Shown piece by piece: positions 4,339 to 20,374 of a stretch of DNA of 34,599 bases; the stretch's first letter is position 1; the number at the start of each line of letters is the position of its first letter. The notes under the pieces were generated by a model, which worked only from the letters and a program-made list of their open reading frames with translations, was not told the origin of the DNA and made no database searches. Source of the DNA: a virus (Duplodnaviria; Caudoviricetes); IMG/VR virus record IMGVR_UViG_3300019996_000013, positions 1 to 34,599 of that record; one strand, written 5' to 3'. A program made the translations under genes and the position numbers.

Positions 4339-5073
4339 ATGGAATTTGAAAAAGGAATCGATTCATTACCACCGGTACCGGAGATGCAAGAACAACAATC
4401 TGCCGAGGAGCAATCGCAACAGGAACAGGCACAACCAGAACAGATAGCTGCTTCCAGTCAACCTGAACGCGAAACATCCAAAGAGAAAAATATCCGTGCC
4501 CTGCGTGAACGCGCACAACGAGCTGATCAATTGGAACGGGAACGCGATGAACTCTTGCGCATGGTTAGAGAACAACACCGTGCAGTTGCTCCAACACCAC
4601 CACAAGAAGAAGATCTCGAATTCAAACTTGATGATAACGATCTTGCCGAAGGTAAACACTTATCAAAGGTCCAGCGTAAAATCCAACATCTGGAAACGCA
4701 GTTGATAGAAGCGCGGTTGAAAGCCCTATATCCTGATTTTGATCGTGTCGTTTCAGCTGAAAATGTTCGCGCTTTAAGTAGTTCGTATCCTGAAATAGCC
4801 GCTACACTCAATTCATCGCGAGATCTTTATGGCAAAGCAGTTTCTGCCTATACCATGATCAAAAAACTTGGTCTGACACAGCAAGAAGATTCTTATTCCC
4901 GTGATCGAGAAATAGCCGCTCAAAATGCCGCTAAGCCGCGACCGCTTGCAAGCGTATCGCCACAGCAAGGTGACTCGCCCTTATCCCATGCCAATGCTTT
5001 CGCTAATGGGTTAACACCAGAGCTCCGTAAGCAGTTGCATAGAGAAATGGTTGAAGCCATGAAGAAAAATTAA
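4339..5073 (+). CDS. Putative capsid scaffolding protein
   Basis: Acidic/Gln-rich N-terminus, coiled coil (NIRALRERAQRADQLERERDEL), basic helical C-terminus; lies between portal and capsid. Confidence 0.7.
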   Translation: MEFEKGIDSLPPVPEMQEQQSAEEQSQQEQAQPEQIAASSQPERETSKEKNIRALRERAQRADQLERERDELLRMVREQHRAVAPTPPQEEDLEFKLDDNDLAEGKHLSKVQRKIQHLETQLIEARLKALYPDFDRVVSAENVRALSSSYPEIAATLNSSRDLYGKAVSAYTMIKKLGLTQQEDSYSRDREIAAQNAAKPRPLASVSPQQGDSPLSHANAFANGLTPELRKQLHREMVEAMKKN

Positions 5074-5162
5074 CGAAAAACACGACTAGATAGTCTTTCC
5101 GGTGTTTTTAGTACTTTTTAAAATCGGAAAAAAGCATATACTATTTGTGCTTCTTGTTGAGC

Positions 5163-5226
5163 CAGTCCAGAAAAGAGCTAGTTGATATTGAGTATGAAAC
5201 TAATTCTTCCCTGGACTGTTTTCTTT
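5163..5226. terminator. Long hairpin between convergent scaffold and HAD genes
   Basis: CAGTCCAG...CTGGACTG with inner AAGAGCTAGTT/AACTAATTCTT pairing, followed by TTTTCTTT. Confidence 0.5.
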
Positions 5227-5854
5227 ATTCTAAAAGACCATTATCAAACATATGCCTAGCATCGGCATAGGTATATGTACGCATGTCTATTACTTGATGT
5301 ATGCCCGCAGTTTTAGCCGAGAGTATTCCTTTTTGTGTATCTTCCAAACAAATACATTCATCAGGATTAATGCCAAGTTTCTTTATAACGAAACGATACA
5401 AAGCAGGATCGGGCTTGAACGTTGCATCTACCATACATGAATTATAAATATGCTCGCCGAAAAAATTCTGCAAATTCATCTTGTGGATTAAAGGCTGAAG
5501 AGCGTAATCTGGAGCATTTGTTGCGATAGCAGTTATTATCCCACGTTGTTTACAAAAAGAATGAAAGTCTTGGAATCCTTCAACAAAATTGATTTCATTA
5601 TGATTAATAATAGCGCGCGCAATAGATTGATAGGTATGGATAATTTCTTCATCGCTTTGTCCAATATAGCCATAATGTAGACGTAAGATTTGAGCAGTTT
5701 TATAAAGACCTTTCTGAGGTCCATGAAAATCCGAACGTAGAGTTCGAAATCTCTCGAGTTCTGTATCGCCAACAAAATGACCTAAGATTTTATCCCAGAT
5801 ATGGAGAGTTTGTATAATAGTTCCATCCATATCAAATATTGCGACGTTAATCAT
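5225..5854 (-). CDS. HAD-superfamily phosphatase (beta-phosphoglucomutase/CbbY-like, C1 cap)
   Basis: Motif I FDMDGT, motif II ATN, motif III KPDP, motif IV LEDTQKG..SAKTAG. Confidence 0.92.
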   Translation of the reverse strand: MINVAIFDMDGTIIQTLHIWDKILGHFVGDTELERFRTLRSDFHGPQKGLYKTAQILRLHYGYIGQSDEEIIHTYQSIARAIINHNEINFVEGFQDFHSFCKQRGIITAIATNAPDYALQPLIHKMNLQNFFGEHIYNSCMVDATFKPDPALYRFVIKKLGINPDECICLEDTQKGILSAKTAGIHQVIDMRTYTYADARHMFDNGLLE

Positions 5855-6666
5855 TCTGCTTTCTTTCTTTCGGCCTTTGCCTGATCCTGCATTTTATGCA
5901 ATAGTGGCGCTGGCGTTACAAATTGATCGATGCGGAGCTTATTTTGTCGATACGATTGCAGTTCTGGTAGCAATCGCCGTATCTTTTCTATAGCCGTTGG
6001 TGTTCGTTTAGTTATATCATCAAAGGTTATGCGTACATGGTTATAATCAGCAGCATACTGTCCTATAGGACGTAAAAATTGATTAACGAAGGCCAATCCT
6101 TCTGCCATAGTATATTCATCTCCGATCTGTTTTTCGCTCTTATTCAAAGACTTTACTACGTCCCGTGAATCTCTTGAAACAATAACCAGATTCGGCTCAT
6201 ATCCCAATTCTTGAGCTGCTTGTAAATACAAGGGCAATAACAAACATACTCGTGGATGTTTCAGGCCAAATTGTTGAGATCCATTGAATGATTTCTTCAA
6301 TACTCTTTGTATCTTCTTTATTGCTTGTGGCGATTCTTCATGGGATTTAAAATCAATTGGTTGTTTGGTTGACGCATTACGTGGACAAATACCAAACGTA
6401 CGAATCAATTCTCGATTGAGAACAACAGTATTCTCGTCCTCATAATCTCCTTTTGGATTCCATGATCCTGCTGGCGTGAGCTTATCACCCAAATATAATC
6501 CCAATTGTCCCAAAACCCCTGTTGTCACCGATGTTCCACTCCGGGGAGCTCCTAAAATAAATACAGCCCTTTTTTGGTGTTCAACCATACCACTCATGGC
6601 AAAATTGGGAAAAATGACTAATGAAAATAACGCAAATGGACGTGAAACGCCCTTAGAACTGTGCAT
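5851..6666 (-). CDS. Sulfotransferase-family protein with N-terminal hydrophobic/signal segment
   Basis: 5'-PSB loop ILGAPRSGTS, NPKGDYED, LKHPR, VSRD..DVVKSL; AAGGAG SD; ATGA overlap with the HAD gene. Confidence 0.85.
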   Translation of the reverse strand: MHSSKGVSRPFALFSLVIFPNFAMSGMVEHQKRAVFILGAPRSGTSVTTGVLGQLGLYLGDKLTPAGSWNPKGDYEDENTVVLNRELIRTFGICPRNASTKQPIDFKSHEESPQAIKKIQRVLKKSFNGSQQFGLKHPRVCLLLPLYLQAAQELGYEPNLVIVSRDSRDVVKSLNKSEKQIGDEYTMAEGLAFVNQFLRPIGQYAADYNHVRITFDDITKRTPTAIEKIRRLLPELQSYRQNKLRIDQFVTPAPLLHKMQDQAKAERKKAE

Positions 6667-7020
6667 ACAGTACTCCTTGTTGAGGAAGGTTAAAACGCTG
6701 CTTTTAATGATCTCTTTTAGAAGAGAATGACATTCATTTGAGTATGAATTCTTACTTCTTAAAAGATCATCTTTTCTAGCATGTACATTTTTACATAGTT
6801 CGTCAATAGCTTTTTTATTTATTTTTATGAATTATACAAACAGAAAGAAGTAACGTTAAAAATTGGCTCTAGTGGCTTATTTTCATTTCTTTCTATTTAT
6901 AAAAAAAACTATATTCTCTTCATGTTGGTTATCATTTGATAAAATAAAAAAGGGGGGAATATAGGCTAAGAATAAGACATTATCGTATACCTACAATATA
7001 ATTTTCTAAGGGATAAAATT

Positions 7021-7605
7021 ATGATAAAAAAAAGTATATTATTGAGTATTCTTTCAATAAGTGTCATGAGCAACGCAGCATTGCTCGATGGATTGAAGCT
7101 TACTGACGATAATTTAGTAGTGTCAGCGCCGTTGGTTATAAATCCTTCGGCATTAGGCGCATTGAAAGTCTATCGTGATGATAGTAAGTTCTGCGTGCAG
7201 ACGCCAAAAGGCAAGCTCCGTACGATAAAACCATGTTTTGTAAATAAAGAACTTCGTCGCATGGATAAGAGCGAGCTGGCTAAATTACTGACTGCAGGAT
7301 CATATTTAAGGCTTAAACAAAATGCGGAAGGCGATTACGCGCTTGATCTTGATGGGCGTCTACAAGCTGGTGGCCCTATTGGAGGATCAATAGGATGCTT
7401 TTTAGGCAAAGGACTTGTCTATGGTGTTAGCTATGGCGCTATAGGTTTGGTTTCTGCAGCCGTTTCAGCTGTAGCGACACCAGTAGCTGGAGCAGCTGTT
7501 GGTGGTGCTCTTCGGGGTATTTTTGGTCCTGCTATTGAAGGTGCAAGTAATGTTGCAGCAGTAACCTGTGGCATTGCAGGCGCAGCATTGACTGGTCCTG
7601 TGTGA
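7021..7605 (+). CDS. Secreted protein with RLQAGG motif and hydrophobic Gly/Ala-rich C-terminus (bacteriocin/pore-former precursor-like)
   Basis: Sec signal MIKKSILLSILSISVMSNA; basic central domain; GG at aa 117-118; 76-aa hydrophobic tail. Confidence 0.8.
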   Translation: MIKKSILLSILSISVMSNAALLDGLKLTDDNLVVSAPLVINPSALGALKVYRDDSKFCVQTPKGKLRTIKPCFVNKELRRMDKSELAKLLTAGSYLRLKQNAEGDYALDLDGRLQAGGPIGGSIGCFLGKGLVYGVSYGAIGLVSAAVSAVATPVAGAAVGGALRGIFGPAIEGASNVAAVTCGIAGAALTGPV

Positions 7606-7616
7606 GGAAATAAAAG

Positions 7617-7751
7617 ATGAGATGGTTATGGATTGGATGGGTAGAATACGAGTGTATGTGGCAGTACTTGCTTCATTATTTTCTTCTCCACTGTTCCGTG
7701 TGCTGCGCTCTTTTTTTTATTTTTTCTGGTATAAGGAAATGGTATGAGTGA
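7617..7751 (+). CDS. Micro membrane peptide 1 (44 aa, MRWLWIGWVEYECMWQYLLHYFLLHCSVCCALFFIFSGIRKWYE)
   Basis: GAGG SD overlapping the upstream stop; hydrophobic core; below the ORF-track cutoff. Confidence 0.55.
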   Translation: MRWLWIGWVEYECMWQYLLHYFLLHCSVCCALFFIFSGIRKWYE

Positions 7752-7854
7752 ATGGCTGGCAAATCCACACGTGATAGCTGAGTTTGTCATGTATCTATGG
7801 ATCATAGCCTTTGTTCAAAAATATCTTGTCTTGAGATTTGATAAAAAGAGGTAA
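7744..7854 (+). CDS. Micro membrane peptide 2 (36 aa, MSEWLANPHVIAEFVMYLWIIAFVQKYLVLRFDKKR)
   Basis: AAGGA SD; 8-nt overlap with peptide 1; one TM segment and basic tail. Confidence 0.6.
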   Translation: MSEWLANPHVIAEFVMYLWIIAFVQKYLVLRFDKKR

Positions 7855-7856
7855 AT

Positions 7857-7949
7857 ATGTGGTTATGGTGGGAATTATATCTTGTGGGCATTATTGCATT
7901 CTTGGTATTTTTAATGGTATATAGTCTTTCCTCGGAGGAAGATCAATGA
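7857..7949 (+). CDS. Micro membrane peptide 3 (30 aa, MWLWWELYLVGIIAFLVFLMVYSLSSEEDQ)
   Basis: AAGAGG SD; starts 2 nt after peptide 2; clear TM helix. Confidence 0.62.
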   Translation: MWLWWELYLVGIIAFLVFLMVYSLSSEEDQ

Positions 7950-8050
7950 TCATTACTCAGTGGGAACATTATCTCATCGCTTTGCTAGTACTCATACCTA
8001 CCTACAAAATCTTGTATGATTTTTTCATGAACCATCCACTAAAACAATAA
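7946..8050 (+). CDS. Micro membrane peptide 4 (34 aa, MIITQWEHYLIALLVLIPTYKILYDFFMNHPLKQ)
   Basis: GGAGG SD; ATGA overlap with peptide 3; ends just before the terminator. Confidence 0.62.
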   Translation: MIITQWEHYLIALLVLIPTYKILYDFFMNHPLKQ

Positions 8051-8063
8051 AATCATTTTCATA

Positions 8064-8107
8064 ACAAACAAAAATACCCAGAAATTTATCTGGGTATTTT
8101 TGTTTGT
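8064..8107. terminator. Bidirectional terminator, perfect 19-bp inverted repeat
   Basis: ACAAACAAAAATACCCAGA-AATTTA-TCTGGGTATTTTTGTTTGT. Confidence 0.75.
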
Positions 8108-8172
8108 AGAGTTATTTTCTTGTCGGGGAGACAAAGAAAGCCTGTGACTAGGCAGGGGATAGCATAGCAAGG

Positions 8173-8202
8173 TTGCATAGAAAAAAAAGTTATGGTTATA
8201 CT
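8173..8202 (+). promoter_or_regulatory. Putative sigma70-type promoter for the capsid operon
   Basis: TTGCAT-18nt-TATACT; predicted start near 8208. Confidence 0.55.
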
Positions 8203-8206
8203 TGAG

Positions 8207-8327
8207 TAGCAGTATTTGAAGAGTCGCTATCTTCGCTCTTGGATTGTATCGAGTTTCGTCCACTCATCGGCCGTATCAAGTCTCGCCAGCTTTTAATATA
8301 TGTTCGTCCTTTTTTTAGGATATTCTC
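8207..8327 (+). ncRNA. Candidate structured 5' leader: three tandem pseudoknot-like units plus an SD-occluding hairpin
   Basis: Three units with interleaved X-Y-X'-Y' complementarity, conserved GTAT and TCG linkers and different stem sequences. Confidence 0.55.
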
Positions 8328-9275
8328 ATGGCAATAACTACAACTAGCACGTTGCCTGCACCAGTACAACAGAGCTTTAGCTATAAGTTGCTCTCGGTGC
8401 CCGTGCCAAATATGATCCATAAAATACCAGCGATGAAGAAAGCTATGCCACGTAATGGTGGTACTACGCTGCGTATGCGTCGTTACAATCCTTTGGCGAC
8501 CGCAATGGTTCCATTAGGAAACTCTGGTGTAACACCTCCAGCACAATTACTTACTGCAATTGATATTGACGCAACAATATCGTTCTATGGCACGTATGTT
8601 CAATTGAACGAGCAAGTTACACTCCAAAACCAAGATCCGGTTCTCAATGAATGCGCAGCGCGCCTTGGTGTATCACTTCGTCAAACTGAAGATCAGTTAA
8701 CGCGTGACATGCTTGCAGGAACGGCTTCATTCATTAACTGCGTTGGCGGTGTTAATGGTGACAATCCAACTGAAATAACACGTTCTGATGTTGATGTTGT
8801 TGTGCGTACGCTCTTGGATAACAATGCGTACACTATTATGGATAACATCGAAGGTGAAGATAAATTCGGTACAGCGCCAGTTCGTGATGCATACTTTGCA
8901 CTATGTTCGACGCAATTGACCGGAAATCTTGATGCCGTTTCAGGATTCATCCATAAGAACCAATATCCTGCACCAATGGAAGCATTGCGTTCAGAATGGG
9001 GTGCCATTGGAAATTTGCGTTTCTTGGTATCATCTATCGGTTCAGTAACTCCTAATGCTTCTAACCTCGGCGCGAATGTGTTCAACATTTTCTGCGTTGG
9101 TATGGAAGCGTATGCGTGTATTGAGCAAGATGGCTATTCTGCTTCATTCATCTATCGTCCACCAATATATGATGGTCCGTTAGCATTGAATGCTTCAGTA
9201 GGATACAAGTTCGCAGAAGTTCCACGAATCACGAATGATCTGTGGGTTATTAACCTTCGTTGTACACTTGCTTAA
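8328..9275 (+). CDS. Major capsid protein, N4-gp56-like (HK97 fold)
   Basis: 315 aa; MPRNGGTTLRMRRYNPL, YGTYVQLNEQV, SEWGAIGNLRF and DGPLALNASVGYK motifs. Confidence 0.88.
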   Translation: MAITTTSTLPAPVQQSFSYKLLSVPVPNMIHKIPAMKKAMPRNGGTTLRMRRYNPLATAMVPLGNSGVTPPAQLLTAIDIDATISFYGTYVQLNEQVTLQNQDPVLNECAARLGVSLRQTEDQLTRDMLAGTASFINCVGGVNGDNPTEITRSDVDVVVRTLLDNNAYTIMDNIEGEDKFGTAPVRDAYFALCSTQLTGNLDAVSGFIHKNQYPAPMEALRSEWGAIGNLRFLVSSIGSVTPNASNLGANVFNIFCVGMEAYACIEQDGYSASFIYRPPIYDGPLALNASVGYKFAEVPRITNDLWVINLRCTLA

Positions 9276-9285
9276 GGAGTAAAAA

Positions 9286-10323
9286 ATGTCTACAGGAACA
9301 ACAACTTTTCAAGGAAGTTTTCTTTCTACGGGCGGTAATATTGTTATTCCGTTCGCAACACCTATAGATTGGATGCGCGTTATTAACTTAACAATAGCAG
9401 ATGATCAAAGTCCAACAACGCAAGAGGGTGTTGAATATTATTGGCAGCGTGGGTTTCCTTTTGAATCTAGGTATCTGTATTACAAATCAAATGCCACTAA
9501 TGCTGATAACTTGATTCAATATAGAATCGATGGTGGTTTTACGTTTGTTGATACAACGAGCAATCCAATTGGTGATTTAAATAACGGTTCGACCGGTATT
9601 TCTAACATTTCTAATGCTAACCCTCCCGTGGTAACGGTTGGTTCTACGACTGATATGTTACCAGGTAACGTTGTGCGTATTTACAACGTTGTTGGTGCAC
9701 AACAACTTGGTGGTATCGATTTCACGATAGGATATGGAACATTCTCGGGTACAAGCTTCAGTTTGGATTACATGTCAGCTATTGCAACCGCTGCTTCTCC
9801 AGGCGCCGGCGCGTCATTCCGTGTGATCCAATTCGATCCAATATTCTACCCACGTCGTCGTTACATCACTAAGATTACGCGTGCTTCACAAGCAGTTGTG
9901 ACTCTTTCGGTAACGCATCAGTACCAAGTAGGACAAGCGGTTCGATTTGTGATTCCTGCTGTGTATGGCATGCCACAAATGGATGGTCTTTTGGGGACAA
10001 TCGTTGCTATCGATACTTCTACAACAGCGGTTACTGGAAACACGATCACGGTTGATATTGATTCTAGTACATTCAGTTCATTCGCATTCCCAGTAACTTC
10101 TATACATCCGTTTTCGCCTGCTGAAGTCGTACCGGTAGGAGAAGATACTGGAGTTGCATTGAGTCTTGGTTCTAATATCTTGAATGATTCTACAATCAAC
10201 GAAGGCATGTTCGCGATGATACTTAATGGTGGTGATGATCAACCAGGTGGTCGTTCAGTTGGCGATACTATGATTTGGCAGGCTGGAACCGTGTTCAGCA
10301 CAAATAATCTAATATCGTTCTAG
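9286..10323 (+). CDS. Virion structural/decoration protein with two E1-FCCH-like beta-barrel repeats
   Basis: Directly after the capsid gene; ISNISNANPPVVTV and ITKITRASQAVVT...GMPQMDG...ITVDIDSSTF repeats. Confidence 0.7.
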   Translation: MSTGTTTFQGSFLSTGGNIVIPFATPIDWMRVINLTIADDQSPTTQEGVEYYWQRGFPFESRYLYYKSNATNADNLIQYRIDGGFTFVDTTSNPIGDLNNGSTGISNISNANPPVVTVGSTTDMLPGNVVRIYNVVGAQQLGGIDFTIGYGTFSGTSFSLDYMSAIATAASPGAGASFRVIQFDPIFYPRRRYITKITRASQAVVTLSVTHQYQVGQAVRFVIPAVYGMPQMDGLLGTIVAIDTSTTAVTGNTITVDIDSSTFSSFAFPVTSIHPFSPAEVVPVGEDTGVALSLGSNILNDSTINEGMFAMILNGGDDQPGGRSVGDTMIWQAGTVFSTNNLISF

Positions 10324-10345
10324 AATTACCATAACCAACTCTCTT

Positions 10346-10374
10346 CCGGGAGCAGTTTCCCCAACTGCTCCCGG
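10346..10374 (+). terminator. Strong hairpin after capsid and decoration genes (attenuator/terminator)
   Basis: CCGGGAGCAGTT-TCCCC-AACTGCTCCCGG, weak U-tract. Confidence 0.55.
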
Positions 10375-10395
10375 GGATTTATACGAGGAGCAACC

Positions 10396-10806
10396 ATGGC
10401 GCAAGAGACAACAACAAATCCAGAATTGAATGTAAGAAAAGAGAATAAAGCAAAGCTCCGCTATCAACGTGATAAAGATCGTGAATTGGTAACTGGCATG
10501 TTTCATTTTCATGAAGTCCCTGGTGGATCTATGTCATTTGTCTATCGCGGTTATCGCGAAGATCAGGTAGAACGCTATGACATGATAGACAACCAAATCT
10601 ATAAAATACCGTTGGGTGTAGCAAAACACTTAAACAAAAATGGTTGGTATCCAGTTCATTCATATGCTGTGGATGATCATGGAAAACCGATTATGAAAAT
10701 AGGACAAAAAGTCCGCCGGTTCAGCTTTAGATCATTAGAATTTATTGATTCTGCGGATTTAACTCCGGAAGGCTCAGCGAATATCATAACGGTTCAGAGA
10801 GTTTAG
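10396..10806 (+). CDS. Hypothetical head-region protein
   Basis: GAGGAG SD; 136 aa within the morphogenesis operon. Confidence 0.75.
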   Translation: MAQETTTNPELNVRKENKAKLRYQRDKDRELVTGMFHFHEVPGGSMSFVYRGYREDQVERYDMIDNQIYKIPLGVAKHLNKNGWYPVHSYAVDDHGKPIMKIGQKVRRFSFRSLEFIDSADLTPEGSANIITVQRV

Positions 10807-10807
10807 T

Positions 10808-11170
10808 ATGTCAAACTGCTATGCCAATCCCAATCCCACATTTCAGCCCGCGTATCGCCTCATCACGTCTATCACGAACTCGAATCCAGCGATAATCACA
10901 ACATCGTTTGCACATAACTACAAAACGGGGATGATTGTGCGGATTGATATTCCACCAGCGGATAGCATGCAGCAAATAAATGGTTTGACCGGCACGATTA
11001 TAGTGACCGGTCCTACTACTTTTTCGATAGATATTGATACAAAGCATTTTGATGTATTTTCTATTCCTGTCACGCGCTATAATACCTGTGCACTTGTTGT
11101 TCCTATCGGTGAAGTAGCTGCTACACTGAAGGCGGCTACGATTAACGTTTTACCAAGTGGAGATTTCTAA
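10808..11170 (+). CDS. Single E1-FCCH-like domain structural protein
   Basis: ITSITNSNPAIITTSFAHNY..G..VRI.IP...MQQINGLTGTI...FSIDIDT resembles repeat 2 of 9286-10323. Confidence 0.72.
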   Translation: MSNCYANPNPTFQPAYRLITSITNSNPAIITTSFAHNYKTGMIVRIDIPPADSMQQINGLTGTIIVTGPTTFSIDIDTKHFDVFSIPVTRYNTCALVVPIGEVAATLKAATINVLPSGDF

Positions 11171-12147
11171 TGGCAGATTCATCACTCACCGCTATACAAA
11201 CAAAGGTAAGGCGGTTAACACGAAGCCCTTCAGAAGCAATACTCCCTACAGCAACGCTTAATGAATACATCAATACATTTGTGCTTTATGATTTTCCCGA
11301 ACACTTACGCCTTTTTAATTTACGTACAACACTCACGTTTTGGTGTGAGCCTTTTATAGATACTTATACAACTACAACGAGTGATCCAGCTGATCCTTTA
11401 TACAATTTCATCAATAAATATATTTCGGTACATGATCCGGTATATATCGCAGGATATAAAGCTTTTTATTCGCAATCTCGTGAACAGTTTTTCAATATTT
11501 ATCCGTTTACCAATAGCCTTCAGCTCGTTGCATCCGGCGATGGCATAACGACAGCATTTTCTGGCGTATTACCTTCTATTCCCGTTGCACGTAATAATGT
11601 TACGTTTGCATCAATAACTACAACTGGCGGTGGTTTACAATGCCATGACGATGGTAATGGTAATTTGGTTGGTGACGTAACCGTTCCGGGAACTATTAAT
11701 TATCTTACTGGCGCTTTTTCGTTTAATTTCACATCAGCTCCTGCGTCAGGAATTCCCGTAAATAGTGAAACGTATGTCTATGTTCCAGCACGACCATTAG
11801 CCATGCTATTTTATGACGGTGTATTTACCCTACGTCCTATCCCCGATCAGCCGTATCCAATCAATTGTGAAGTGTATATTCGTCCAACTGAACTTCTTTC
11901 ATCAAGTCAAAGTCCTGAACTACAAGAATGGTGGCAATATATTGCTTACGGCGCTGCTAAAAAAGTTTTTGAAGATCGTATGGATGTCGATAGTGTCGGT
12001 CTTATAATGCCCGAGTTTAAGAAACAAGAAGCATTAATTCTAAGAAGAACTATTGTACAATACACCAACGAACGAACCGCTACTATCTATACCGAACAAA
12101 CTGGTCTTCAAACAGGATCATGGGGCTGGGGCGGCGGACCATTTTAA
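11170..12147 (+). CDS. Putative head-to-tail adaptor with inserted beta-rich domain
   Basis: Helical N-terminus (IQTKVRRLT...LNEYIN) and C-terminus (WWQYIAYGAAKKVFEDR) flanking a beta-rich insert; position. Confidence 0.6.
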   Translation: MADSSLTAIQTKVRRLTRSPSEAILPTATLNEYINTFVLYDFPEHLRLFNLRTTLTFWCEPFIDTYTTTTSDPADPLYNFINKYISVHDPVYIAGYKAFYSQSREQFFNIYPFTNSLQLVASGDGITTAFSGVLPSIPVARNNVTFASITTTGGGLQCHDDGNGNLVGDVTVPGTINYLTGAFSFNFTSAPASGIPVNSETYVYVPARPLAMLFYDGVFTLRPIPDQPYPINCEVYIRPTELLSSSQSPELQEWWQYIAYGAAKKVFEDRMDVDSVGLIMPEFKKQEALILRRTIVQYTNERTATIYTEQTGLQTGSWGWGGGPF

Positions 12148-12159
12148 TCAGGAGAAACA

Positions 12160-12780
12160 ATGGCATACAATGCAAATATTCCGCAGCCTAATGATCGGCT
12201 TAAAGATTCTCAACCCGAAATTTTGGCAAACTTCCAAGCAATCAACACGCTTATTGGAATTAACCATGCAACTTTCGGTGCTTCTGATGCGGGAAAGCAT
12301 ACGTATATTGAATTTGTACCACAGCTTGCAGCGCCTCCGATCGTGTTCCCTGCGGGCGAGAATGCAGTTTATAGCTTCTTAAATACACTTACTTCACAGA
12401 ACGAGATCTATGTTAACAAAACACAGCAAGCGACGGTTGTACAAGTTCCATTTACTGCTTCTACCCTAAGTATTACTAATCTTCCGAGTCCTCAAAGCAA
12501 TGGGTGGTCATACTTGCCATCAGGATTACTTATCAAATGGGGTAACGGCCAAGGAACTGGCGATGATGTTCAATCATTCCCCGTAGATGCCACTACACCG
12601 GTCTTTACGCGTGTTATGCAAGTTATATTATGCACTTCAGGTGGTGTTGCCGGTGATCAAGATACCTTTGTTCGCCTTAAAGGTATGAACTCTACACAAA
12701 TTCAATTCTGGGCTGGCAAAAGAACGGTTTTAAACTCGCCAACATTGTGCTTCTTCTCGTATCTAGCCATAGGAAGATAA
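12160..12780 (+). CDS. Tail-associated protein with gp53-like C-terminal domain
   Basis: NGWSYLPSGLLIKWG motif and C-terminal YLAIG. Confidence 0.65.
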   Translation: MAYNANIPQPNDRLKDSQPEILANFQAINTLIGINHATFGASDAGKHTYIEFVPQLAAPPIVFPAGENAVYSFLNTLTSQNEIYVNKTQQATVVQVPFTASTLSITNLPSPQSNGWSYLPSGLLIKWGNGQGTGDDVQSFPVDATTPVFTRVMQVILCTSGGVAGDQDTFVRLKGMNSTQIQFWAGKRTVLNSPTLCFFSYLAIGR

Positions 12781-12781
12781 G

Positions 12782-14977
12782 ATGCCTATCGATCGTTTCA
12801 TGATTGCTCCATTGAATACAGGTCTACAAACGGACCTAAAACCGTGGCTTATTCCTGACGACGCTTTCTTTCGGCTACAGAATGCCTATATTTTCCGTGG
12901 TCGTGTACGTAAGCGTTTTGGTGCAATACTCATGAACGGATCGGTTGACCCTTCAGTAGCGCAATTATATTCTCGCTTTAGAATTCTTGTAGGAACAACC
13001 GATGGCTCGGGGAATCTTTCCGGTACGGTACCAGGAGTTATTTTCCAAATAGGGCAACTGTTTTCTATTGGCGATGAGATATTCACTGTTTATCAAACCG
13101 GAACGCCTGCAGCAATGCTTAAAACTGGTTCAACAACAACAGCAACGTATGACACAACTACTGGAGCATTTAATTTTGTCGGGGCAGCCGCACTTACTGA
13201 TGTATTTTTTTACCCAGCACAACCGGTTATGGGTCTTCTTACCTATGAAACAGCAGCGATAAATGATGAACCAGTTTTCGGGTTCGATACACAATTTGCT
13301 TACACGTATAACGGTACTTCGTGGCAACGATCGTCGGCAGAAGCATCGGCAGGAGCTTCAGTATGGACAGGATCCAATGCTGATTTCTTTTGGGGATACA
13401 CCTATCGTGGCGTTTCTGATAGCAATAATTACTTCTTTGTTTCAAACTTCGTAGCAATAGATTTAATGCGGTTCTTTGATGGTACGCAGTGGAATTTCTT
13501 TAATCCGGTCTATAATAACGGCAGTGAAACAATTGAAACAGCGCGTATTATAGTTCCCTTTAAAAATCGCCTTGTTTTGCTCAATACCATAGAAACAGTA
13601 AGTGCCGCTAATACTGCTTTTGTTAATCGTTGCCGGTTCTCGGTTAATGGCGATCCTACTTCAGTTAATGCTTGGAACGAAGATATTCCAGGACAAGGTG
13701 GCTATGTTGACCTGCCTACAAAAGAAGTAATTGTTACTGCCCAGTTCTTAAAAGATCGTTTAATCGTGTATTGCGAATCGAGCACCTGGGAACTTGTATA
13801 CACAGGAAACCAAGTTCTTCCTTTTGTCTGGCAACAGATCAACACAGAACTCGGCGCTGAATCGACCTTTTCTGAGGTTCCTTTTGATAAATTGATTCTT
13901 GGTGTAGGTAATGTCGGTATCCATGCTTGTAATGGCGCTAACGTTGAACGCATCGATTCAAAAATTCCTGATTCTGTCTTTGAAGTATCTAATGATAACG
14001 AAGGCGTATTTCGTGTGTACGGTATTCGTGATTATTTTGCTGAAATGGTCTACTGGACCTTTCCTTCACTTGAACTGGATTCAACATTCCCTAATCGCGT
14101 ATTGATCTATAACTATCGTACGCAGTCGTGGGCATTTAATGATGATTCAATTACCGCATTTGGTTACTATCAACAACAAGATTCAATAACATGGGCATCA
14201 ACTAATGATACGTGGCAGGACTCAGTTGAAGCATGGAATAATGCTATATTACAAGCCAAGTTTCGACAGATTATCGCCGGAAATCAAGAAGGATTCGTTT
14301 TCATTGTCGATACCGAGGGTACCCGTAATGCTCCTGCTCTTCAAATTACCAACCTTATCGTCACTGGCAATGTCGTTACTATTACTGCTATTAATCATAA
14401 TCTACTGCCTGGGGATTATATATATATCGAGAACACGGTAGGCGTTAATTTACCTATTTTAGGATTTTACCCTGTTGCTAGCGTAATTGATGTTAATAAT
14501 TTCACGCTCGAGAATACTGATATCACACTAGCTCTTGGTGGCTATCTTGGTGGTGGTACTATTACTCGCGTGAGTAGAATTGATATTTGGACCAAACAAT
14601 ATAACTTCTATGTTAATCAGGGCCGTAATGTCGCTATCAATAAAGTAGATTTTCTTGTTGATAAAACTGCATTAGGCGCTATTACTATTGATTTCTTCCC
14701 GTCATCGACCGAGCTTTCTATGATCCAGGAGGGACAAGCGACGGGTGCAATTATTGGTACTAATGTCCTTGAGACATCCGCTTATCCGTTAGTACCGCTC
14801 GAATCACAACAGGATCGAGTATGGCATCCGGTATATTTGCAAGCCGATGGCGAATGTATTCAGTTACGGATTTACTTATCTGATGACCAGATGGTTAATA
14901 TCGATACTGCATTTTCCGATTTTCAGCTCAATGCAATGACTTTCTATGCTCAGCCAACATCTCAGCGTCTCCAATAA
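12782..14977 (+). CDS. Putative tail hub/nozzle (P22 gp10 or T7 gp12-like beta-propeller)
   Basis: 731 aa, beta-rich; NAYIFRGRVRKRFG, PFKNRLVLLN and RCRFS..GDP; one FCCH-like insert; precedes the ejection genes. Confidence 0.68.
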   Translation: MPIDRFMIAPLNTGLQTDLKPWLIPDDAFFRLQNAYIFRGRVRKRFGAILMNGSVDPSVAQLYSRFRILVGTTDGSGNLSGTVPGVIFQIGQLFSIGDEIFTVYQTGTPAAMLKTGSTTTATYDTTTGAFNFVGAAALTDVFFYPAQPVMGLLTYETAAINDEPVFGFDTQFAYTYNGTSWQRSSAEASAGASVWTGSNADFFWGYTYRGVSDSNNYFFVSNFVAIDLMRFFDGTQWNFFNPVYNNGSETIETARIIVPFKNRLVLLNTIETVSAANTAFVNRCRFSVNGDPTSVNAWNEDIPGQGGYVDLPTKEVIVTAQFLKDRLIVYCESSTWELVYTGNQVLPFVWQQINTELGAESTFSEVPFDKLILGVGNVGIHACNGANVERIDSKIPDSVFEVSNDNEGVFRVYGIRDYFAEMVYWTFPSLELDSTFPNRVLIYNYRTQSWAFNDDSITAFGYYQQQDSITWASTNDTWQDSVEAWNNAILQAKFRQIIAGNQEGFVFIVDTEGTRNAPALQITNLIVTGNVVTITAINHNLLPGDYIYIENTVGVNLPILGFYPVASVIDVNNFTLENTDITLALGGYLGGGTITRVSRIDIWTKQYNFYVNQGRNVAINKVDFLVDKTALGAITIDFFPSSTELSMIQEGQATGAIIGTNVLETSAYPLVPLESQQDRVWHPVYLQADGECIQLRIYLSDDQMVNIDTAFSDFQLNAMTFYAQPTSQRLQ

Positions 14978-15012
14978 AACTTCTACCGCAGGAACGAATC
15001 CACGCGGTAGAA
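14978..15012 (-). terminator. Terminator hairpin between convergent genes
   Basis: TTCTACCGC-14nt-GCGGTAGAA; U-rich tract follows on the minus strand. Confidence 0.55.
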
Positions 15013-15050
15013 AAAAGGGAGAGCTATGAAACTCTCTGGGTGATAGGATA

Positions 15051-15602
15051 TCACTCTTTTATGTATTCTAAAATAACATATGTAACTGTATAGTTCGTTC
15101 TATCAGACCCTGTCGTAATATTTACATTCGTACTATCGACATTGAGTTCTATATTTTTAGTCAAAACGGGACTTGCGTACGGGATCGGGATATAGCTCAT
15201 TCCTATTTGGTCTGAAGCTGTCGCATAGATGCGAGTAAAACTATATCCTGATGTTATAGTGAGGTTATGTGCAACGGATTTGGTTGCGGTATTAGGGAGT
15301 GTACCAAAATTGATAACAAGCCGGAATACTTGCCGCCATATAGGGGCTGTAGCAGTAGTCGAAGATCGTGCTGGATTGGGAAAGAATATCTGACCGTTTA
15401 CAAATTCCGTTTGGGCATAATAACCCGCATCGCGTGTATCTACCGATAAAGAAATATTGTTAATATTCTGCCCAAGGCGCACAATAAGCTCTTTAAACTC
15501 AGGACTGGTTACTTCAACTGAATAGACTTGTGATACGTCCCAAATATTGGTCGTTGCAACAAAAGATCCTGGATTGGCTTGTGGACCATAACTTGCAGCC
15601 AT
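15051..15602 (-). CDS. Probable virion structural protein (coiled coil plus beta-sandwich) encoded antisense to the tail operon
   Basis: AGGAG SD; T/S/N/V-rich; FGTLPNTATKSVAHNL...YVILEYIK fibre-tip-like domain. Confidence 0.75.
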   Translation of the reverse strand: MAASYGPQANPGSFVATTNIWDVSQVYSVEVTSPEFKELIVRLGQNINNISLSVDTRDAGYYAQTEFVNGQIFFPNPARSSTTATAPIWRQVFRLVINFGTLPNTATKSVAHNLTITSGYSFTRIYATASDQIGMSYIPIPYASPVLTKNIELNVDSTNVNITTGSDRTNYTVTYVILEYIKE

Positions 15603-15683
15603 ATACTTACTCCTAGAAAATCTAGATAAACAATCTCTTGCTTATTAGGCTAAGAGAGTAGGTATATAAATCAAGGAGATGCA

Positions 15684-16148
15684 ATGCCATTACGCCAATT
15701 CCCGTTGCTCACACAACCACAACAGGGACTCCAACAAAATATCTTATCAATGTTGCCCCAATTGCTTTCTTCTACGAGTCAGCAAGGTTTTGATTTTAAA
15801 CCGATTGCAGAACAGGCGCGCACTCAGTTTCAGCAACAAACGATTCCTTCTATTGCTGAACGATTCACCGGATTGAATGCCCAAGGATCAAGTGCGTTTA
15901 AGCAATCTCTAGGACAAGCGGGCGCTGGACTAGAACAGGGGCTCGGTGCATTACAATCACAATACGGACTTCAACAACAAGGACTTAATCAGCAGCTTCT
16001 TTCTAATTTATTACATCATGGACTCCAGCCGTCGATGGAAAATGTATACTTCCCGCGCCAACAAAGCTTTTCTGAAGGATTTTTCCCCTCATTAGCGCAA
16101 GGTGGTTTATCGGCGCTCTTAAAACTGTTAACTGGTGGTTTACTTTAA
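15684..16148 (+). CDS. Putative ejection (DNA transfer) protein, Gln/Gly-rich
   Basis: AAGGAG SD; composition and position like podovirus pilot proteins. Confidence 0.65.
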   Translation: MPLRQFPLLTQPQQGLQQNILSMLPQLLSSTSQQGFDFKPIAEQARTQFQQQTIPSIAERFTGLNAQGSSAFKQSLGQAGAGLEQGLGALQSQYGLQQQGLNQQLLSNLLHHGLQPSMENVYFPRQQSFSEGFFPSLAQGGLSALLKLLTGGLL

Positions 16149-16157
16149 AGGAATATC

Positions 16158-17648
16158 ATGGCTCAAGTAATCAACGAAACGCCACAACTTGGATTTCGCC
16201 TCGGTACTGGTCTTGGACAAGGATTAGGCGCCGGATTGAATGAATTGGCTAATTATCATGTAGGAAATCTCTTACAACAAAAACAACAGGCCATGGCACA
16301 ACAGCAACAACAACGTACCAGTGGCTTGTTGCAACAGTTCGGTCTTGCGCCAGAAGCTGCAAATTTCATTGCAATCTTACCACCTAAGGAACAATGGGCA
16401 GCTGTGCAAGAACTGTCAGGACTTGGTGCATTAGGCGGACTCCAACAGCAAGAGCAGGGGCAACAACAACAATCTCTTGGGCAACTGGCACAACCACAAG
16501 AAACTTCGCAACCTTTATCGCAGGTTTTGGGCCAGATGGGGCAACAAATGCCAAGATCGGTTCAGGAATTGTTTGCTTTACGAGGATTGCAACAACAGCC
16601 GCAGGCAGCAGCACAGATGCAACAGCCAAGCGCTCAACAACCGCAACAAATAGCACCTCCACCGGAAATACAACAAAAAGCAGCACAAGCTCCAGCACAA
16701 GGTAAGGGCGCTCAAGGTGCACAACCAAGGATAACGCAACGTGAAGTTAAAAGGCCGGTGACCCCAGCTGATCAACTCGCTTTAAAACGACAACTAGTTG
16801 CACAAAAAGAAATGGAAAAAGAGCAAAGAATCGCACAAAAAGATATTAATAAAGAGACTGAAGATTTTTATAAGACTACGATCAAAGACGAACAAGCGGC
16901 TAAAAAGAGTGATCTACGCTTGGGTCGTCTCGAGCAGTTGGTAAAAAAAGGAAATTTACCTGGTTCAACCTGGTATCGGTTATTTAAGGATCTTTCTGAA
17001 GAAGGCCTTGGAATCAATACAACACTTGCTGGCGCTGCTCTTGGAGCATTAGCTGGTGGTGGTGCTGGAACTCTCTTTGGAGGCCCTGCCGGAGCCGTAG
17101 CCGGTATTACCGCAGGACAAGCGGGCGGTGCAGCACTCGGTGGTCTGTTAGGTTCGGCAATCAATCCGCTTGCTAAAGGTCTAGGTAGCGCTGCCCTTGC
17201 CATACAAAGAAAAACGTCACCGGATGTTGAAGAGTTCGAAAAGCTTTCTACTGACTTTATTCGTGAAGCAAAAGAGATATTCGGAGCTCGCGTAACTAAC
17301 CAAGATCTTACTGCCTTCATGCAAATTATTCCTACCCTTATGCAAACAGATGCCGGTAAGAATAGAGTTATTGAGAACATGCGCTTTTTTAATAAGGCTA
17401 ATCATGTTCGTTATAACGCTATGAAACAGATCATTGACACAAATGGTGGCAAACGTCCGGCTAATATCGAACTTCTGGTTGATGAATATACGCAACCACA
17501 ACTCGATAAGCTTGCCGATCAATTCAAAGAAGGAATTGTCACCACTACTTCCCTTCCACAACTTAACGCCAAACCTTTAACTAAAGCTGCCGTTACAGGA
17601 AAACAACCGGGAGTAATAGGATCTGCGCGTAGACGGGCAAATTTATAA
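16158..17648 (+). CDS. Putative ejection (DNA transfer) protein with glycine-zipper hydrophobic segment
   Basis: LGTGLGQGLGAGL N-terminus, poly-Q linker, LAGAALGALAGG...ALGGLLG zipper, C-terminal FGARVTNQDL. Confidence 0.7.
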   Translation: MAQVINETPQLGFRLGTGLGQGLGAGLNELANYHVGNLLQQKQQAMAQQQQQRTSGLLQQFGLAPEAANFIAILPPKEQWAAVQELSGLGALGGLQQQEQGQQQQSLGQLAQPQETSQPLSQVLGQMGQQMPRSVQELFALRGLQQQPQAAAQMQQPSAQQPQQIAPPPEIQQKAAQAPAQGKGAQGAQPRITQREVKRPVTPADQLALKRQLVAQKEMEKEQRIAQKDINKETEDFYKTTIKDEQAAKKSDLRLGRLEQLVKKGNLPGSTWYRLFKDLSEEGLGINTTLAGAALGALAGGGAGTLFGGPAGAVAGITAGQAGGAALGGLLGSAINPLAKGLGSAALAIQRKTSPDVEEFEKLSTDFIREAKEIFGARVTNQDLTAFMQIIPTLMQTDAGKNRVIENMRFFNKANHVRYNAMKQIIDTNGGKRPANIELLVDEYTQPQLDKLADQFKEGIVTTTSLPQLNAKPLTKAAVTGKQPGVIGSARRRANL

Positions 17649-17903
17649 TTTTTTACTTTCTTCTTGGCAGCGTTTGATGTAACAATCAAGCGCTTCCTTT
17701 GTTAAAGAACAAAGTCCTTGCTTATTTTCTGCATTGTCTTGATTAGGTTTATTAAAATCAACCTGAGGAAGTTTTCGAAACATCCATGCAAGCATACGCA
17801 TACCGCCGTAAATAAACCCTACAAATAGTGCTAAGTAGAGCATCAATCCCACAAATAAACTGCCAACTATAAGAAGTATCCCGCCAAGTATATCCAATAA
17901 CAT
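17643..17903 (-). CDS. Small membrane protein, superinfection-exclusion candidate
   Basis: Long hydrophobic N-terminus; AAGGA SD; antisense and adjacent to the ejection genes. Confidence 0.6.
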   Translation of the reverse strand: MLLDILGGILLIVGSLFVGLMLYLALFVGFIYGGMRMLAWMFRKLPQVDFNKPNQDNAENKQGLCSLTKEALDCYIKRCQEESKKL

Positions 17904-17915
17904 TATCGTTTCCTT

Positions 17916-18131
17916 TTAAGTATTATCACTTTGTTCATGTATCTGTTTTTCTCGTTTTATCTGTTCTGCAAGGGCTCGCATTACCCATAAGCGCATGGTA
18001 ATACCCCGAGCTGCAGCCATTCCCTTTATTTTTCTATGGTCTTGTTCCGATAAATCAACCAATAGGCGCTTTTTTGATTTAACTGTCGACATAGTGTCGA
18101 CACTTGAAGTAAGCCGTTTTGTATTTTCCAT
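17916..18131 (-). CDS. Ribbon-helix-helix DNA-binding protein (Arc/Mnt/ParG-like)
   Basis: KKRLLVDLSEQDHRKIKGMAAARGITMRLWVMRAL; AAGGAG SD. Confidence 0.8.
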   Translation of the reverse strand: MENTKRLTSSVDTMSTVKSKKRLLVDLSEQDHRKIKGMAAARGITMRLWVMRALAEQIKREKQIHEQSDNT

Positions 18132-18150
18132 AGACGCACTCCTTAAAATA

Positions 18151-18168
18151 TATAAATATATATTTATA
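18151..18168. promoter_or_regulatory. Perfect 18-bp palindrome upstream of the RHH gene (operator candidate)
   Basis: TATAAATATATATTTATA in the divergent intergenic region; A/T-only, so chance occurrence is possible. Confidence 0.4.
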
Positions 18169-18275
18169 CTACAACTTTCTTTTCACTATTGCAACTGGTT
18201 CCCTTTCGAGTTCTACTAAAGCAAGAAATACCATGAATCTACATGGATCTGGCGCTCGCTCTAAGGAGAAAATAT

Positions 18276-18929
18276 ATGAAAAATATTTTTCTATTTTTAT
18301 TAATAACGATTCCTAGTCTTGCTGCAGATAAAGATTCTCCGGAAAAGTCCGAAGGGAAAGTGCAACTGAGTCCTTTGATTGTTAATCGAGGCGGTCTGCG
18401 AATTCACTATCTACATCCTGTAGCTCCCCTGGTTGTTTCTCATAATCCTGAACTTAGGAGAGGTGGAATGCCATATCAAGATTTAACGCCGGTTTTAGAG
18501 GGGTATGGCACCGATGACGAAGAGGAAATATGGGTATTAAATGGTGGTGGTGGTGGTGATAATAGTCCTAGTAGCGATGAAGAATCATATATGGAGGCAC
18601 AGCGTAATAAACTTCTCGCTTCGCATCTTTTAGGCTCGATGATGTCGTTACCCGGAGCCGTTACTCCTACGCTTATTGATCTTCAAGAAGTACGGGTACC
18701 GGAACATAAACATAGTTTTCCTGAGGTTGTGAGACGTCAAAATGCAGAAATAATGCTTGTTCGTCGAGGTTCGTCGCCAACAATGCCAGAACAATCACCG
18801 GTAATAATGCGATCACAACCTATTGATATTCCTCCTCGAATAGAACCACAGCCAGACGAACAAAAACCTAAGAGTAATGATCGAGGGAAATGCCAATCGT
18901 TGTGGGAAATGTGTTCTGGAAGAAAGTAA
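18276..18929 (+). CDS. Secreted low-complexity Pro/Ser/Glu-rich protein (moron, effector candidate)
   Basis: AAGGAG SD before ATG 18276; signal peptide MKNIFLFLLITIPSLAA; disordered character. Confidence 0.75.
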   Translation: MKNIFLFLLITIPSLAADKDSPEKSEGKVQLSPLIVNRGGLRIHYLHPVAPLVVSHNPELRRGGMPYQDLTPVLEGYGTDDEEEIWVLNGGGGGDNSPSSDEESYMEAQRNKLLASHLLGSMMSLPGAVTPTLIDLQEVRVPEHKHSFPEVVRRQNAEIMLVRRGSSPTMPEQSPVIMRSQPIDIPPRIEPQPDEQKPKSNDRGKCQSLWEMCSGRK

Positions 18930-18974
18930 AAACAATACTATAGTTCAATCTTTTTCAAGATTAAGGAGATAATA

Positions 18975-19949
18975 ATGTCGGTGAATCTACAAAATAATCG
19001 CGTTGCTTACGGGTTAAATGATCCTTTATTGCTGACTGGACCACTTCCTATAATTGCTCAACGCGCACCTACAGCTAATGATAAAGCAGAATTAGGAACT
19101 GAGTGGATTGATAAACCGAATAATCAGGTGTATTTCTTAACCAGTATTGTTAATAACCAAGCCAATTGGTCTAAGGTTGCTAATGGGCTCTTGCTTATAA
19201 CCTTAACAGGTGATAGTGGCGGTGCTGTTCCGGCAACTGCAAACAACATTGATATTTTCGGTGGTACAGGAATTACAGTTGCAGGTACTCCTGGAAGTTC
19301 TCTTCTCTCTATTGGGTTAAATGATGATGTCGTTATCACATTGACTGGTGATAGTGGTGGTGCAGTACCAGGAACTGGCAATAATATTGATGTACAAGGC
19401 GGTACAGGTATTGTGGTAGCTGGTACCCCAGGAAGTTCTCTTCTGTCTATTGGGGTCAGTGATTCTGTTCTGTTAACATTGACTGGCGATACGGGTGGAG
19501 CAGTACCAGGAACTACAAATAATATTAATATCCAGGGCGCTCGTTCAGTGCTTACGGTTACCGGTATTCCATTAAGTTCGTTATTTCAAATTGATGTAAC
19601 GGGTGGTGGCTTGGCTTGGATAGAATCACCAGCAGCGACAGATGCCATATCATTGATAATTAATACTGCCTACATTTCTAATCCTGGTGATGGTAATCAA
19701 GTTGTCTTTCTATTGCCTGCTGTAGCTCCAGTTGGGTCAGTTATTGCGATCGTAGGAAAAGACACTGGTGGCTATCAGATAGCACAGAATGCAGGACAAA
19801 CTATCTTTGATGATCTTGCAGCAACAACAACGGGTGTTCTTGGAACGCTTACTGCAGATAATGCTGGCGCTTCAATAACGATTGTATGTATTACTGCCGA
19901 TACTGATTTTAGAGTTGTTTCAAGGAACGGTACATTCACACCAGCATAA
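18975..19949 (+). CDS. Tail fibre/spike protein with three TLTGDSGGAVP repeats
   Basis: Three ~46-aa repeats; C-terminal LPA..G..IAQNAGQTI domain shared with 21071 and 21595. Confidence 0.75.
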   Translation: MSVNLQNNRVAYGLNDPLLLTGPLPIIAQRAPTANDKAELGTEWIDKPNNQVYFLTSIVNNQANWSKVANGLLLITLTGDSGGAVPATANNIDIFGGTGITVAGTPGSSLLSIGLNDDVVITLTGDSGGAVPGTGNNIDVQGGTGIVVAGTPGSSLLSIGVSDSVLLTLTGDTGGAVPGTTNNINIQGARSVLTVTGIPLSSLFQIDVTGGGLAWIESPAATDAISLIINTAYISNPGDGNQVVFLLPAVAPVGSVIAIVGKDTGGYQIAQNAGQTIFDDLAATTTGVLGTLTADNAGASITIVCITADTDFRVVSRNGTFTPA

Positions 19950-19954
19950 AGTTT

Positions 19955-20088
19955 TATAACGTTGAGAGGATTTGAACTCGTGACGAAATGTCACGGATTG
20001 AAACTTAGGAGCTCAGCTCGTGAAGAAATGTCACGGACTGAAACTTAGAAGCTCAGATTGTTGTTTCAGCGATCCTCTCAACGTTATA
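19955..20088. repeat. 17-bp perfect inverted repeats enclosing two 40-bp tandem repeats
   Basis: TATAACGTTGAGAGGAT (19955-19971) and ATCCTCTCAACGTTATA (20072-20088); repeats 19977-20016 and 20017-20056 match at 37/40. Confidence 0.92.
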
Positions 20089-20132
20089 TACTACAGCAGT
20101 GGTATAACTCATTTTCATAACAGGAGTCTTTC

Positions 20133-20345: not shown

Positions 20346-20374
20346 CGTTGTAGATAACAAAAAGGAGAGTAGTC

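Follow-up and report, generated by a model that had tools for sequence, protein, structure and literature searches.

The leader of the major capsid gene in the viral record IMGVR_UViG_3300019996_000013 (Duplodnaviria; Caudoviricetes) raises the question of what three short tandem units of interleaved complementary strands are doing between a promoter and a start codon. The window, as the term is used here, is the whole stretch of 34,599 nucleotides (nt) that was analysed. An earlier note, made from its letters alone, described three pseudoknot-like units with pairing in the order X-Y-X'-Y', a partial fourth copy at 8303-8310 and a capsid Shine-Dalgarno (SD) sequence, AGGA, at 8317-8320, and all of these are where it placed them. 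The module is real and apparently undescribed; a literature search, which left subscription papers largely outside its coverage, found no account of it. The three units and the gene behind them are:

8207-8235, + strand: module 1, with X at 8207-8212 (bulge 8211), a loop at 8213-8216, Y at 8217-8222, X' at 8225-8229 and Y' at 8230-8235.
8241-8265, + strand: module 2, with X at 8241-8246 (bulge 8245), Y at 8251-8254, X' at 8257-8261 and Y' at 8262-8265.
8269-8292, + strand: module 3 (the last), with X at 8269-8273 (bulge 8272), Y at 8278-8281, X' at 8284-8287 and Y' at 8289-8292.
8328-9275, + strand: major capsid protein gene of the N4-gp56 family (TIGR04387, 141 bits with a cut-off of 60; phrog_1357).

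Pairing of X with X' gives stem 1, and pairing of Y with Y' gives stem 2. Stem 1 has the form RRC-(bulge)-G opposite CGYY, the bulge being present in all three window units and in 68 of 356 parsed units. Loop 1 opens with YA, stem 2 consists of a three-pair core (RRR opposite YYY) with optional flanking pairs, and X' passes almost straight into Y'. Loop 1 is mostly 3-5 nt, loop 2 is 1-4 nt and loop 3 is 0-2 nt. The core sequences RRCG, YA and CGYY are kept, while stem 2 is free to vary. The GUAU and UCG linkers that had been called constant are indeed present, but they are part of stem 1, to which GUA contributes its G and UCG the paired C.

Relatives of the window's capsid protein are encoded in 641 viral stretches. 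The capsid start was located in 225 of 247 sequences (22 without), which gave 134 distinct leaders. At least one unit was found in 120 of these (one in 9, two in 14, three in 71, four in 24 and five in 2), with a median leader identity to that of the window of 57% (62 leaders). A strict descriptor recovered two of the three units in 8191-8330, and two matches occurred in none of 5000 dinucleotide shuffles (one match in 23); its matches numbered 260 in 30.3 kb of capsid leaders (8.6 per kb) and 32 in the 922 kb of same-strand sequence outside them (0.035 per kb). Copy number ranges from one to eight overall, and spacing is not fixed. At one locus (L328:1356-1550) seven near-identical parsed modules and a likely eighth stand in tandem, an array that is, on its sequence, a recent tandem amplification. 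The window's own leader is identical in two assemblies, both of which may be the source of this DNA.

The nested folding of the window leader is unremarkable (z = +1.44), and the case for a pseudoknot thus rests on covariation. The parser picks units that pair, and a second test of covariation therefore used anchors chosen from sequence only, which gave 290 distinct units in 107 leaders. In these, the two outer pairs of stem 1 were Watson-Crick in 84% and 81% of units; permutation gave 41% and 48%, and at best 50% and 56% in 2000 rounds. Stem 2 had at least four pairs in 70% vs 28% when permuted (best 36%). Within one leader, a unit's own Y' scored 10.1 and that of a neighbour 6.7. Furthermore, when 70 units picked by the parser, all of one length class, were aligned without gaps, 89% of cells were paired vs 71% when shuffled, with 141 double changes vs 46, double changes at eight of nine pairs and far lower values in slid controls. 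The covariation counts are uncorrected for kinship, which the within-leader control retains, and the U found before X' in 100% of parsed units is a product of the parser's construction. An alignment with wrong coordinates in one row (L150) was left out of the counts. With both stems far above permutation, the tandem units and the covariation of their stems in homologous leaders are confirmed.

The modules are predicted to be small non-classical pseudoknots with both stems formed together. Simultaneous pairing of the stems is not self-evident, because loops 1 and 3 are short, and this counts against the prediction. The same short loops, together with the weak folding of each window module as a nested hairpin (-2.3 to -4.6 kcal/mol), would favour alternative hairpins, a single-stranded DNA structure or a ToxI-like antitoxin or decoy in place of an RNA pseudoknot, a set of explanations that is highly improbable. 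Both stems are kept in nearly every unit with no shared bases, which argues against alternative hairpins. A DNA structure is disfavoured by the excess of G-U over A-C in paired columns (23 vs 8), a modest sign in favour of sense RNA. The units are not near-identical and the capsid gene comes next, neither of which suits an antitoxin or decoy.

Type III antitoxin RNAs such as ToxI consist of near-identical tandem repeats followed by a terminator and then the toxin gene. The array resembles them in being a set of tandem small pseudoknots behind a promoter, but the three window units differ in both stems, a capsid gene stands where the toxin gene would, no + strand terminator-like site lies between 8292 and 8328, and there is no Rfam match. 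The suggested parallel with type III antitoxins is therefore unsupported. A search with PF13958 (ToxN family) found no match in the window genome, and none in the control genomes either. The Rfam scan, riboswitches and GP20-a/b included, gave no gathering-score match in the window, none up to E 10 over 8207-8327 and none over the modules in 20 loci, which supports a conserved tandem cis-acting RNA without an Rfam entry.

The module follows the capsid transcript, in that it sits at the 5' end of the capsid-encoding unit. This is seen when relatives are sorted by the position of their scaffold gene, for which the window has one candidate:

4339-5073, + strand: likely scaffolding protein gene, its product a candidate ligand; 3.25 kb upstream of the capsid gene and without a module at its own start.

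In relatives, the homolog of this candidate lies immediately before the capsid gene. Family searches with the candidate's product gave no match; its structural model has a disordered acidic N-terminus, a long helix (residues 47-83) and a C-terminal helix pair, and Foldseek searches with the model returned weak matches named scaffolding protein from rank 7 down. With a separate scaffold gene, units are found in the capsid leader in 75 of 75 phages and at the scaffold start in 3 of 75; with adjacent scaffold and capsid genes, they are found in 0 of 8 capsid leaders and at 7 of 9 scaffold starts (one scan for all, with a background of 116 in 1294 windows). In 12 of the 14 leaders without a unit, the upstream scaffold homolog stops 10-33 nt before the capsid start. 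The idea that phages with adjacent genes are without the module proved wrong, since their units are at the scaffold start instead: one lies just before the scaffold SD, and often another lies in frame at about +18 to +32. By eye, L098-L103, L111 and L266 have a variant module with a shorter stem 1 inside an outer helix, about 45-75 nt before the scaffold start.

In many capsid leaders of the window's clade (clade 1), the array is predicted to be coupled to the SD through a hairpin that begins in its last unit; the window has a weak form of this hairpin and, next to it, a structure of its own:

8292-8319, + strand: weak form of the family's anti-SD hairpin, 8292-8296 pairing with 8315-8319 and including two G-U pairs.
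8303-8321, + strand: extra X'-like half-site (8303-8310) and a hairpin (8306-8310 with 8317-8321) over the SD at 8317-8320; nearly private to the window phage.

From the end of module 3 to the capsid AUG is 35 nt, and only the SD hairpin lies nearer. In clade 1 the last Y' also opens a long hairpin, the other arm of which ends in the first half of the SD. A helix of at least 5 base pairs that starts from Y' and closes on the GG of the SD was found for 41 of 74 last units vs 10 of 144 other units. Cross-leader permutation of the anti-SD helix gave 0.36 +- 0.03 (best 49%), and compensatory variants occur in it, e.g., CCUG/CAGG and CUAG/CUAG. When the knot is forced, the predicted opening of the SD goes from 0.27 to 0.48, with a rise in 41 of 76 leaders and a drop in 5 of 76. 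In over half of the window's clade, the last module is thus predicted to share a strand with the anti-SD hairpin, which is the layout of an ON switch. An expression platform, as had been suspected, is predicted in part of the family in the form of this hairpin between the last Y' and the SD, but the fourth partial copy does not serve the family as one, being present in only 2 of 76 leaders, the window's included. In the window that copy pairs with the SD at -5.4 kcal/mol and with unit 2 at -4.3 kcal/mol.

A second layout was met outside the capsid family. Motif-first scans returned 61 tandem-pattern loci, 24 viral single-unit loci and 32 metagenome single-unit loci. The window's capsid family follows in 55 of 61, 16 of 24 and 6 of 32 of these, with capsid identity down to 38%; 2 of 61, 3 of 24 and 4 of 32 lie within the first 5-35 codons of acidic scaffold-like genes; and 4 of 61, 5 of 24 and 22 of 32 were without head-gene context and were counted as chance. 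The convincing contexts are always head assembly. At L280, L286, L334 and L354, the gene that follows has its match in a major head family different from the window's (a weak match at L334, E 0.04), and at L286 an extra unit spans the SD and AUG of the scaffold gene. Scans with the L085 and L280 scaffolds gave three loci and one locus, respectively. With a covariance model made from capsid-leader units only, module 3 is the top match in the window (23.3 bits), and the copies at L085, L334, L354, L280, L286 and L371 rank next after it at 13-19 bits (E 0.02-0.75), these loci having been found with the same consensus.

The L371/L364 family of scaffold-like genes also shows the in-frame layout. 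Its N-terminal pattern fits 104 of 120 homologous proteins, in which the residue pairs are D..S in 59, D..P in 8, G..P in 25 and G..S in 11 (Fisher p = 4e-9, uncorrected). D is coupled to S and G to P because GAC/GUC and GGC/GCC of stem 1 are translated. At DNA level, 25 distinct starts have two in-frame units, at about +14 to +20 and +43 to +57. With sequence-only anchors (18 and 20 of 25), stem 2 scored 11.2 and 11.4 vs 7.1 and 7.4, above all 2000 permutations, and the U before X' varies in this family. Many genes of the family also have, by eye, a permuted hairpin with the module's core shortly before the SD. No phage record matched the L371 scaffold. A predicted RNA fold is here written into protein N-termini strongly enough for amino acids to covary. 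Single good modules were also noted at L377 and L378, in A+T-rich sequence that looks intergenic; no head gene was seen in the vicinity.

The reading that we put at about an even chance, on sequence grounds, is that the array is a translational operator to which a head-assembly protein of the phage binds. Of the options raised at the outset, a protein-binding array linked to scaffold or capsid fits the gene context best. The ligand would be phage-encoded, because the core is common to unrelated phages and is not above chance in 402 candidate host genomes, and the variable copy number would suit a multimeric protein. Free scaffolding protein is tentatively favoured as the ligand because it is the only one that reconciles both directions of control, towards more coat and towards less scaffold. 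With a smaller probability, the ligand might instead be the coat, portal or small terminase protein. Scaffold binding to the array would lock the last knot and free the capsid SD, so that capsid translation is turned on. At a scaffold start the module would be an OFF operator, where protein bound at +14 to +20 nt, or a knot over the SD and AUG, would block initiation. Surplus scaffold would in this way lead to more coat and less scaffold. Behind the acidic tail, the scaffolds found here share a basic helix, at residues 47-83 of the structural model. A stretch rich in arginine occupies a similar place in P22 gp8, a resemblance only. A further step, to which we give a rather low probability, is that one head-assembly operator is shared across unrelated tailed phages, with free scaffold shutting scaffold translation through the in-frame module and opening coat translation through the anti-SD overlap. 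If so, the D/G-V-x4-S-S/P peptides at many scaffold N-termini would be translated RNA structure and not a protein motif.

Several results weigh against this operator, in particular against its ON and OFF modes. The window's own canonical hairpin is weak, and a forced knot leaves its SD opening unchanged (0.21 to 0.21); its SD is held by the separate hairpin at 8306-8321, built from the fourth partial copy. In a second leader clade, the anti-SD hairpin occurs in just 2 of 35 leaders and forcing the knot gives no shift (0.29 to 0.31). Pairing of the last unit with the SD and AUG is marginal in that clade (p = 0.064), and an X-strand partner near the SD is not specific to the last unit there. In clade 1, the 3' halves of last units pair with the whole SD-start region no better than those of other units (p = 0.26), and the upstream units are without evident SD coupling. 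In scaffold-coding copies, the SD opening with the knot forced is 0.46 vs 0.47 (n = 20). An ON role for in-frame copies was tested and found unsupported, and the OFF mode is argued from position alone, because the forced knot leaves SD opening unchanged. The switch between leader and scaffold start counts as about one to three evolutionary events and not as 84, because in a quick tree the phages with adjacent genes branch basal to the leader clade, and one phage of the leader type falls outside that clade. Furthermore, the module left the scaffold gene when the operon was split, which is unexpected for a pure scaffold autoregulation site. Finally, no unit was found at the scaffold or capsid starts of P22 and seven annotated phages (BUCT555, ppBjS10J-1, TM7 phage, vB_Pun_Y3, Page, cthkR962 and DES1).

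The matching of coat to scaffold in tailed phages has long been a question. Wyckoff and Casjens reportedly described autoregulation of the P22 scaffolding protein (gene 8) in 1985. The window phage resembles P22 as a podophage with a P22-type portal, and the proposal made here follows a similar logic, with free scaffold acting on RNA at the scaffold start; the two differ in that P22 has no canonical module at the starts of gene 8 or gene 5. Coat/scaffold control in P22 is known genetically, its RNA target is not known to have a described structure, and scaffold is not known to activate coat translation there. The module offers a defined RNA of 25 bases with hundreds of compensatory natural variants and two opposite layouts, so that binding and the direction of control are testable by E. 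coli reporters. Its minimal pseudoknot topology, with a loop 3 of 0-2 nt, is of structural interest, and if it is gated by protein, it would be a compact part for engineered translational control.

Control of a phage gene by a protein bound to a leader pseudoknot has a precedent in T4, in which gp32 binds such a knot and controls its own translation (PMC3014915). As described there, the gene 32 operator of T4, T2 and RB69 is a single knot, about 67 nt upstream and with two coaxial stems, through which the gene's own product represses. A small leader pseudoknot followed by an A+U-rich stretch and the SD is common to both systems (PMC3014915), and control through a bound protein is what is proposed here as well. 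However, the arrays described here have one to eight modules with a loop 2 of 1-4 nt and a loop 3 of 0-2 nt, they belong to capsid and scaffold genes and not to an SSB gene, their layout is predicted to be ON, and copies occur in coding sequence.

Candidate cis-regulatory RNAs have also been reported directly before other phage head-module genes, namely GP20-a (RF02991), GP20-b (RF03003) and six further candidates upstream of GP20 genes, with GP20 function called unknown (PMC10690425). Those motifs match neither the window nor the 20 loci and lie upstream of genes, whereas the module also occurs in frame and before capsid genes. We take GP20 to be a scaffold. By eye, a permuted hairpin (X', then X-YA, an A run and the SD), with its core as in the module, stands just before the scaffold SD at L388-L412, L417, L418, L424 and L425; it had no Rfam match in those scanned and may link the module to GP20/DUF4355-type leader RNAs. 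Two further candidates are placed no more than 25 nt from genes of the window's capsid family, TIGR04387 (PMC10690425); in the window, the last module stops farther out, at 35 nt from the AUG. These are DNAVirus_3698, of 85 nt with 180 sequences, 37 of them before capsid_maj_N4, and DNAVirus_865, of 62 nt with 139 sequences, 4 of them before capsid_maj_N4, each with only two covarying bases (PMC10690425). By their table entries, they may overlap with the module.

The position of the array relative to its promoter bears on two further explanations. The features upstream of it are:

8173-8202, + strand: predicted sigma70-type promoter, with a -35-like TTGCAT at 8173-8178, an 18-nt spacer and a -10-like TATACT at 8197-8202.
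8064-8107, strand not assigned (listed on +): inverted repeat of 19 base pairs, terminator-like, from a sequence scan.

The hexamers of the promoter are present as had been noted, but it is weaker than was claimed, TTGCAT matching at 3 of 6 positions and a consensus scan listing none. Among 96 leaders with at least three units, 66 have a TAnnnT hexamer whose end lies 6-7 nt ahead of the first unit; in the window this distance is 5 nt. At about 36 nt upstream of the first unit, T-T-G is enriched. As the spacing of the -10-like hexamer is conserved, the first unit likely starts at +1. The repeat at 8064-8107 likely insulates the capsid promoter from transcription coming from upstream, and two more hairpins lie between it and the promoter, at 8119-8153.

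A start at +1 is also what a constitutive decay shield would have, in which the knots pair the 5' end and form tandem obstacles to RNase E/G scanning that stabilise the capsid messenger RNA; for copies in scaffold genes, the downstream capsid cistron would be protected. This explanation is rather unlikely, yet it fits the first unit at the predicted +1, the loose copy number without fixed spacing, and in-frame units that begin at +14 to +20, just past the initiating ribosome by the size of its footprint. Within one candidate host phylum, 60 of 61 genomes encode RNase E/G, the host assignment being unsure. Leader pseudoknots can hinder RNase E scanning and so protect downstream RNA in RNase E/G hosts (PMC9943677). 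The same study also states that such obstacles act by size, protection scaling with coaxial length, ignoring sequence and depending little on composition, and that small knots protect modestly (PMC9943677). The module, by contrast, is short and SD-coupled, and its core sequence is nonetheless kept across unrelated phages. Furthermore, a loop 3 near zero would leave the entry and exit strands parted by stem 2 only (a geometry that is inferred), the hairpin that competes with the last knot is left unexplained, and RNase J, required for a block like that of exoribonuclease-resistant RNAs, is found in 1 of the 61 genomes.

The nascent put RNA of phage HK022, next to a promoter, makes RNA polymerase read through terminators. 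A put-like RNA that modifies the polymerase for read-through of the 20-kb structural operon would share with put the position of the array directly behind the promoter, and no Q-like antiterminator was seen among the open reading frames (ORFs) scanned. Such a role is very improbable, since the count of terminator-like sites in 8330-28320 (21) is close to that in shuffled sequence (14.7 +- 3.8), the conserved coupling is to the SD, and within scaffold genes units are found again 40-60 nt from the start, no promoter having been shown beside them.

A tandem small-molecule riboswitch, responding to a nucleotide, ion or alarmone so as to turn capsid translation on when the host supports assembly, would likewise account for a small pseudoknot that starts at +1, for a strand toggling between knot and SD and for the conserved core nucleotides. 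It is nevertheless improbable. There is no Rfam class for it, the contexts are all head assembly, copies lie inside coding sequence, and the U before X' is variable in the unrelated family. In 201 + 201 candidate host genomes the tandem pattern occurred 13 times (2 of them phage contigs) vs 20 for the reversed control, and 8 vs 18. The suggestion of a general metabolite riboswitch is thus unsupported by enrichment in candidate host genomes, with the host assignment unsure.

These comparisons involve the host, and the assignment of a host to the window phage is unsure. Genome bins with the capsid gene are variously labelled, e.g., Babeliales, Chlamydiae and Parachlamydiaceae. Capsid matches were found in 2 of 201 genomes from the phylum of the Babeliales-labelled bin and in 4 of 251 from that of the Chlamydiae-labelled bin. 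A 546-kb contig (L089), on which G+C goes from about 0.73 to 0.41 at the phage edge, was left out of host inference. In the annotated phage collection, no relative of the capsid exceeded 28% identity.

The window itself is a near-complete podophage genome with a P22-type portal gene at both ends, and its last 750 bases repeat its first:

33847-34599 and 1-753: direct terminal repeat of about 750 bases, which leaves a unique genome of about 33.85 kb.

The capsid gene is the first gene of the 20-kb structural operon. An insertion of 3 kb (5074-8060) parts the scaffold gene from the capsid gene and includes a HAD hydrolase gene (5225-5854), an ORF at 7021-7605 with a signal-peptide-like start, and an ORF at 5851-6666 without a family match, in which we assume a sulfotransferase-like motif. 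Further along, 28348-31327 holds an ERF recombinase gene, small helix-turn-helix-like genes (29680-30144) and a replication-type gene; no integrase was found among the window ORFs scanned.

Among relatives, the capsid gene is often broken by intron-like insertions, several of them with an internal ORF (L034, L065-L067, L074, L081, L087, L089 and L095). A solitary and apparently broken capsid remnant of 39% identity lies amid host genes on a 223-kb contig (L265; G376:C4, about 208.7-209.4 kb). On the Chlamydiae-labelled phage contig L085, a HEARO RNA and a transfer RNA gene are located upstream of the head genes, at 1667-1879 and 732-803, respectively.
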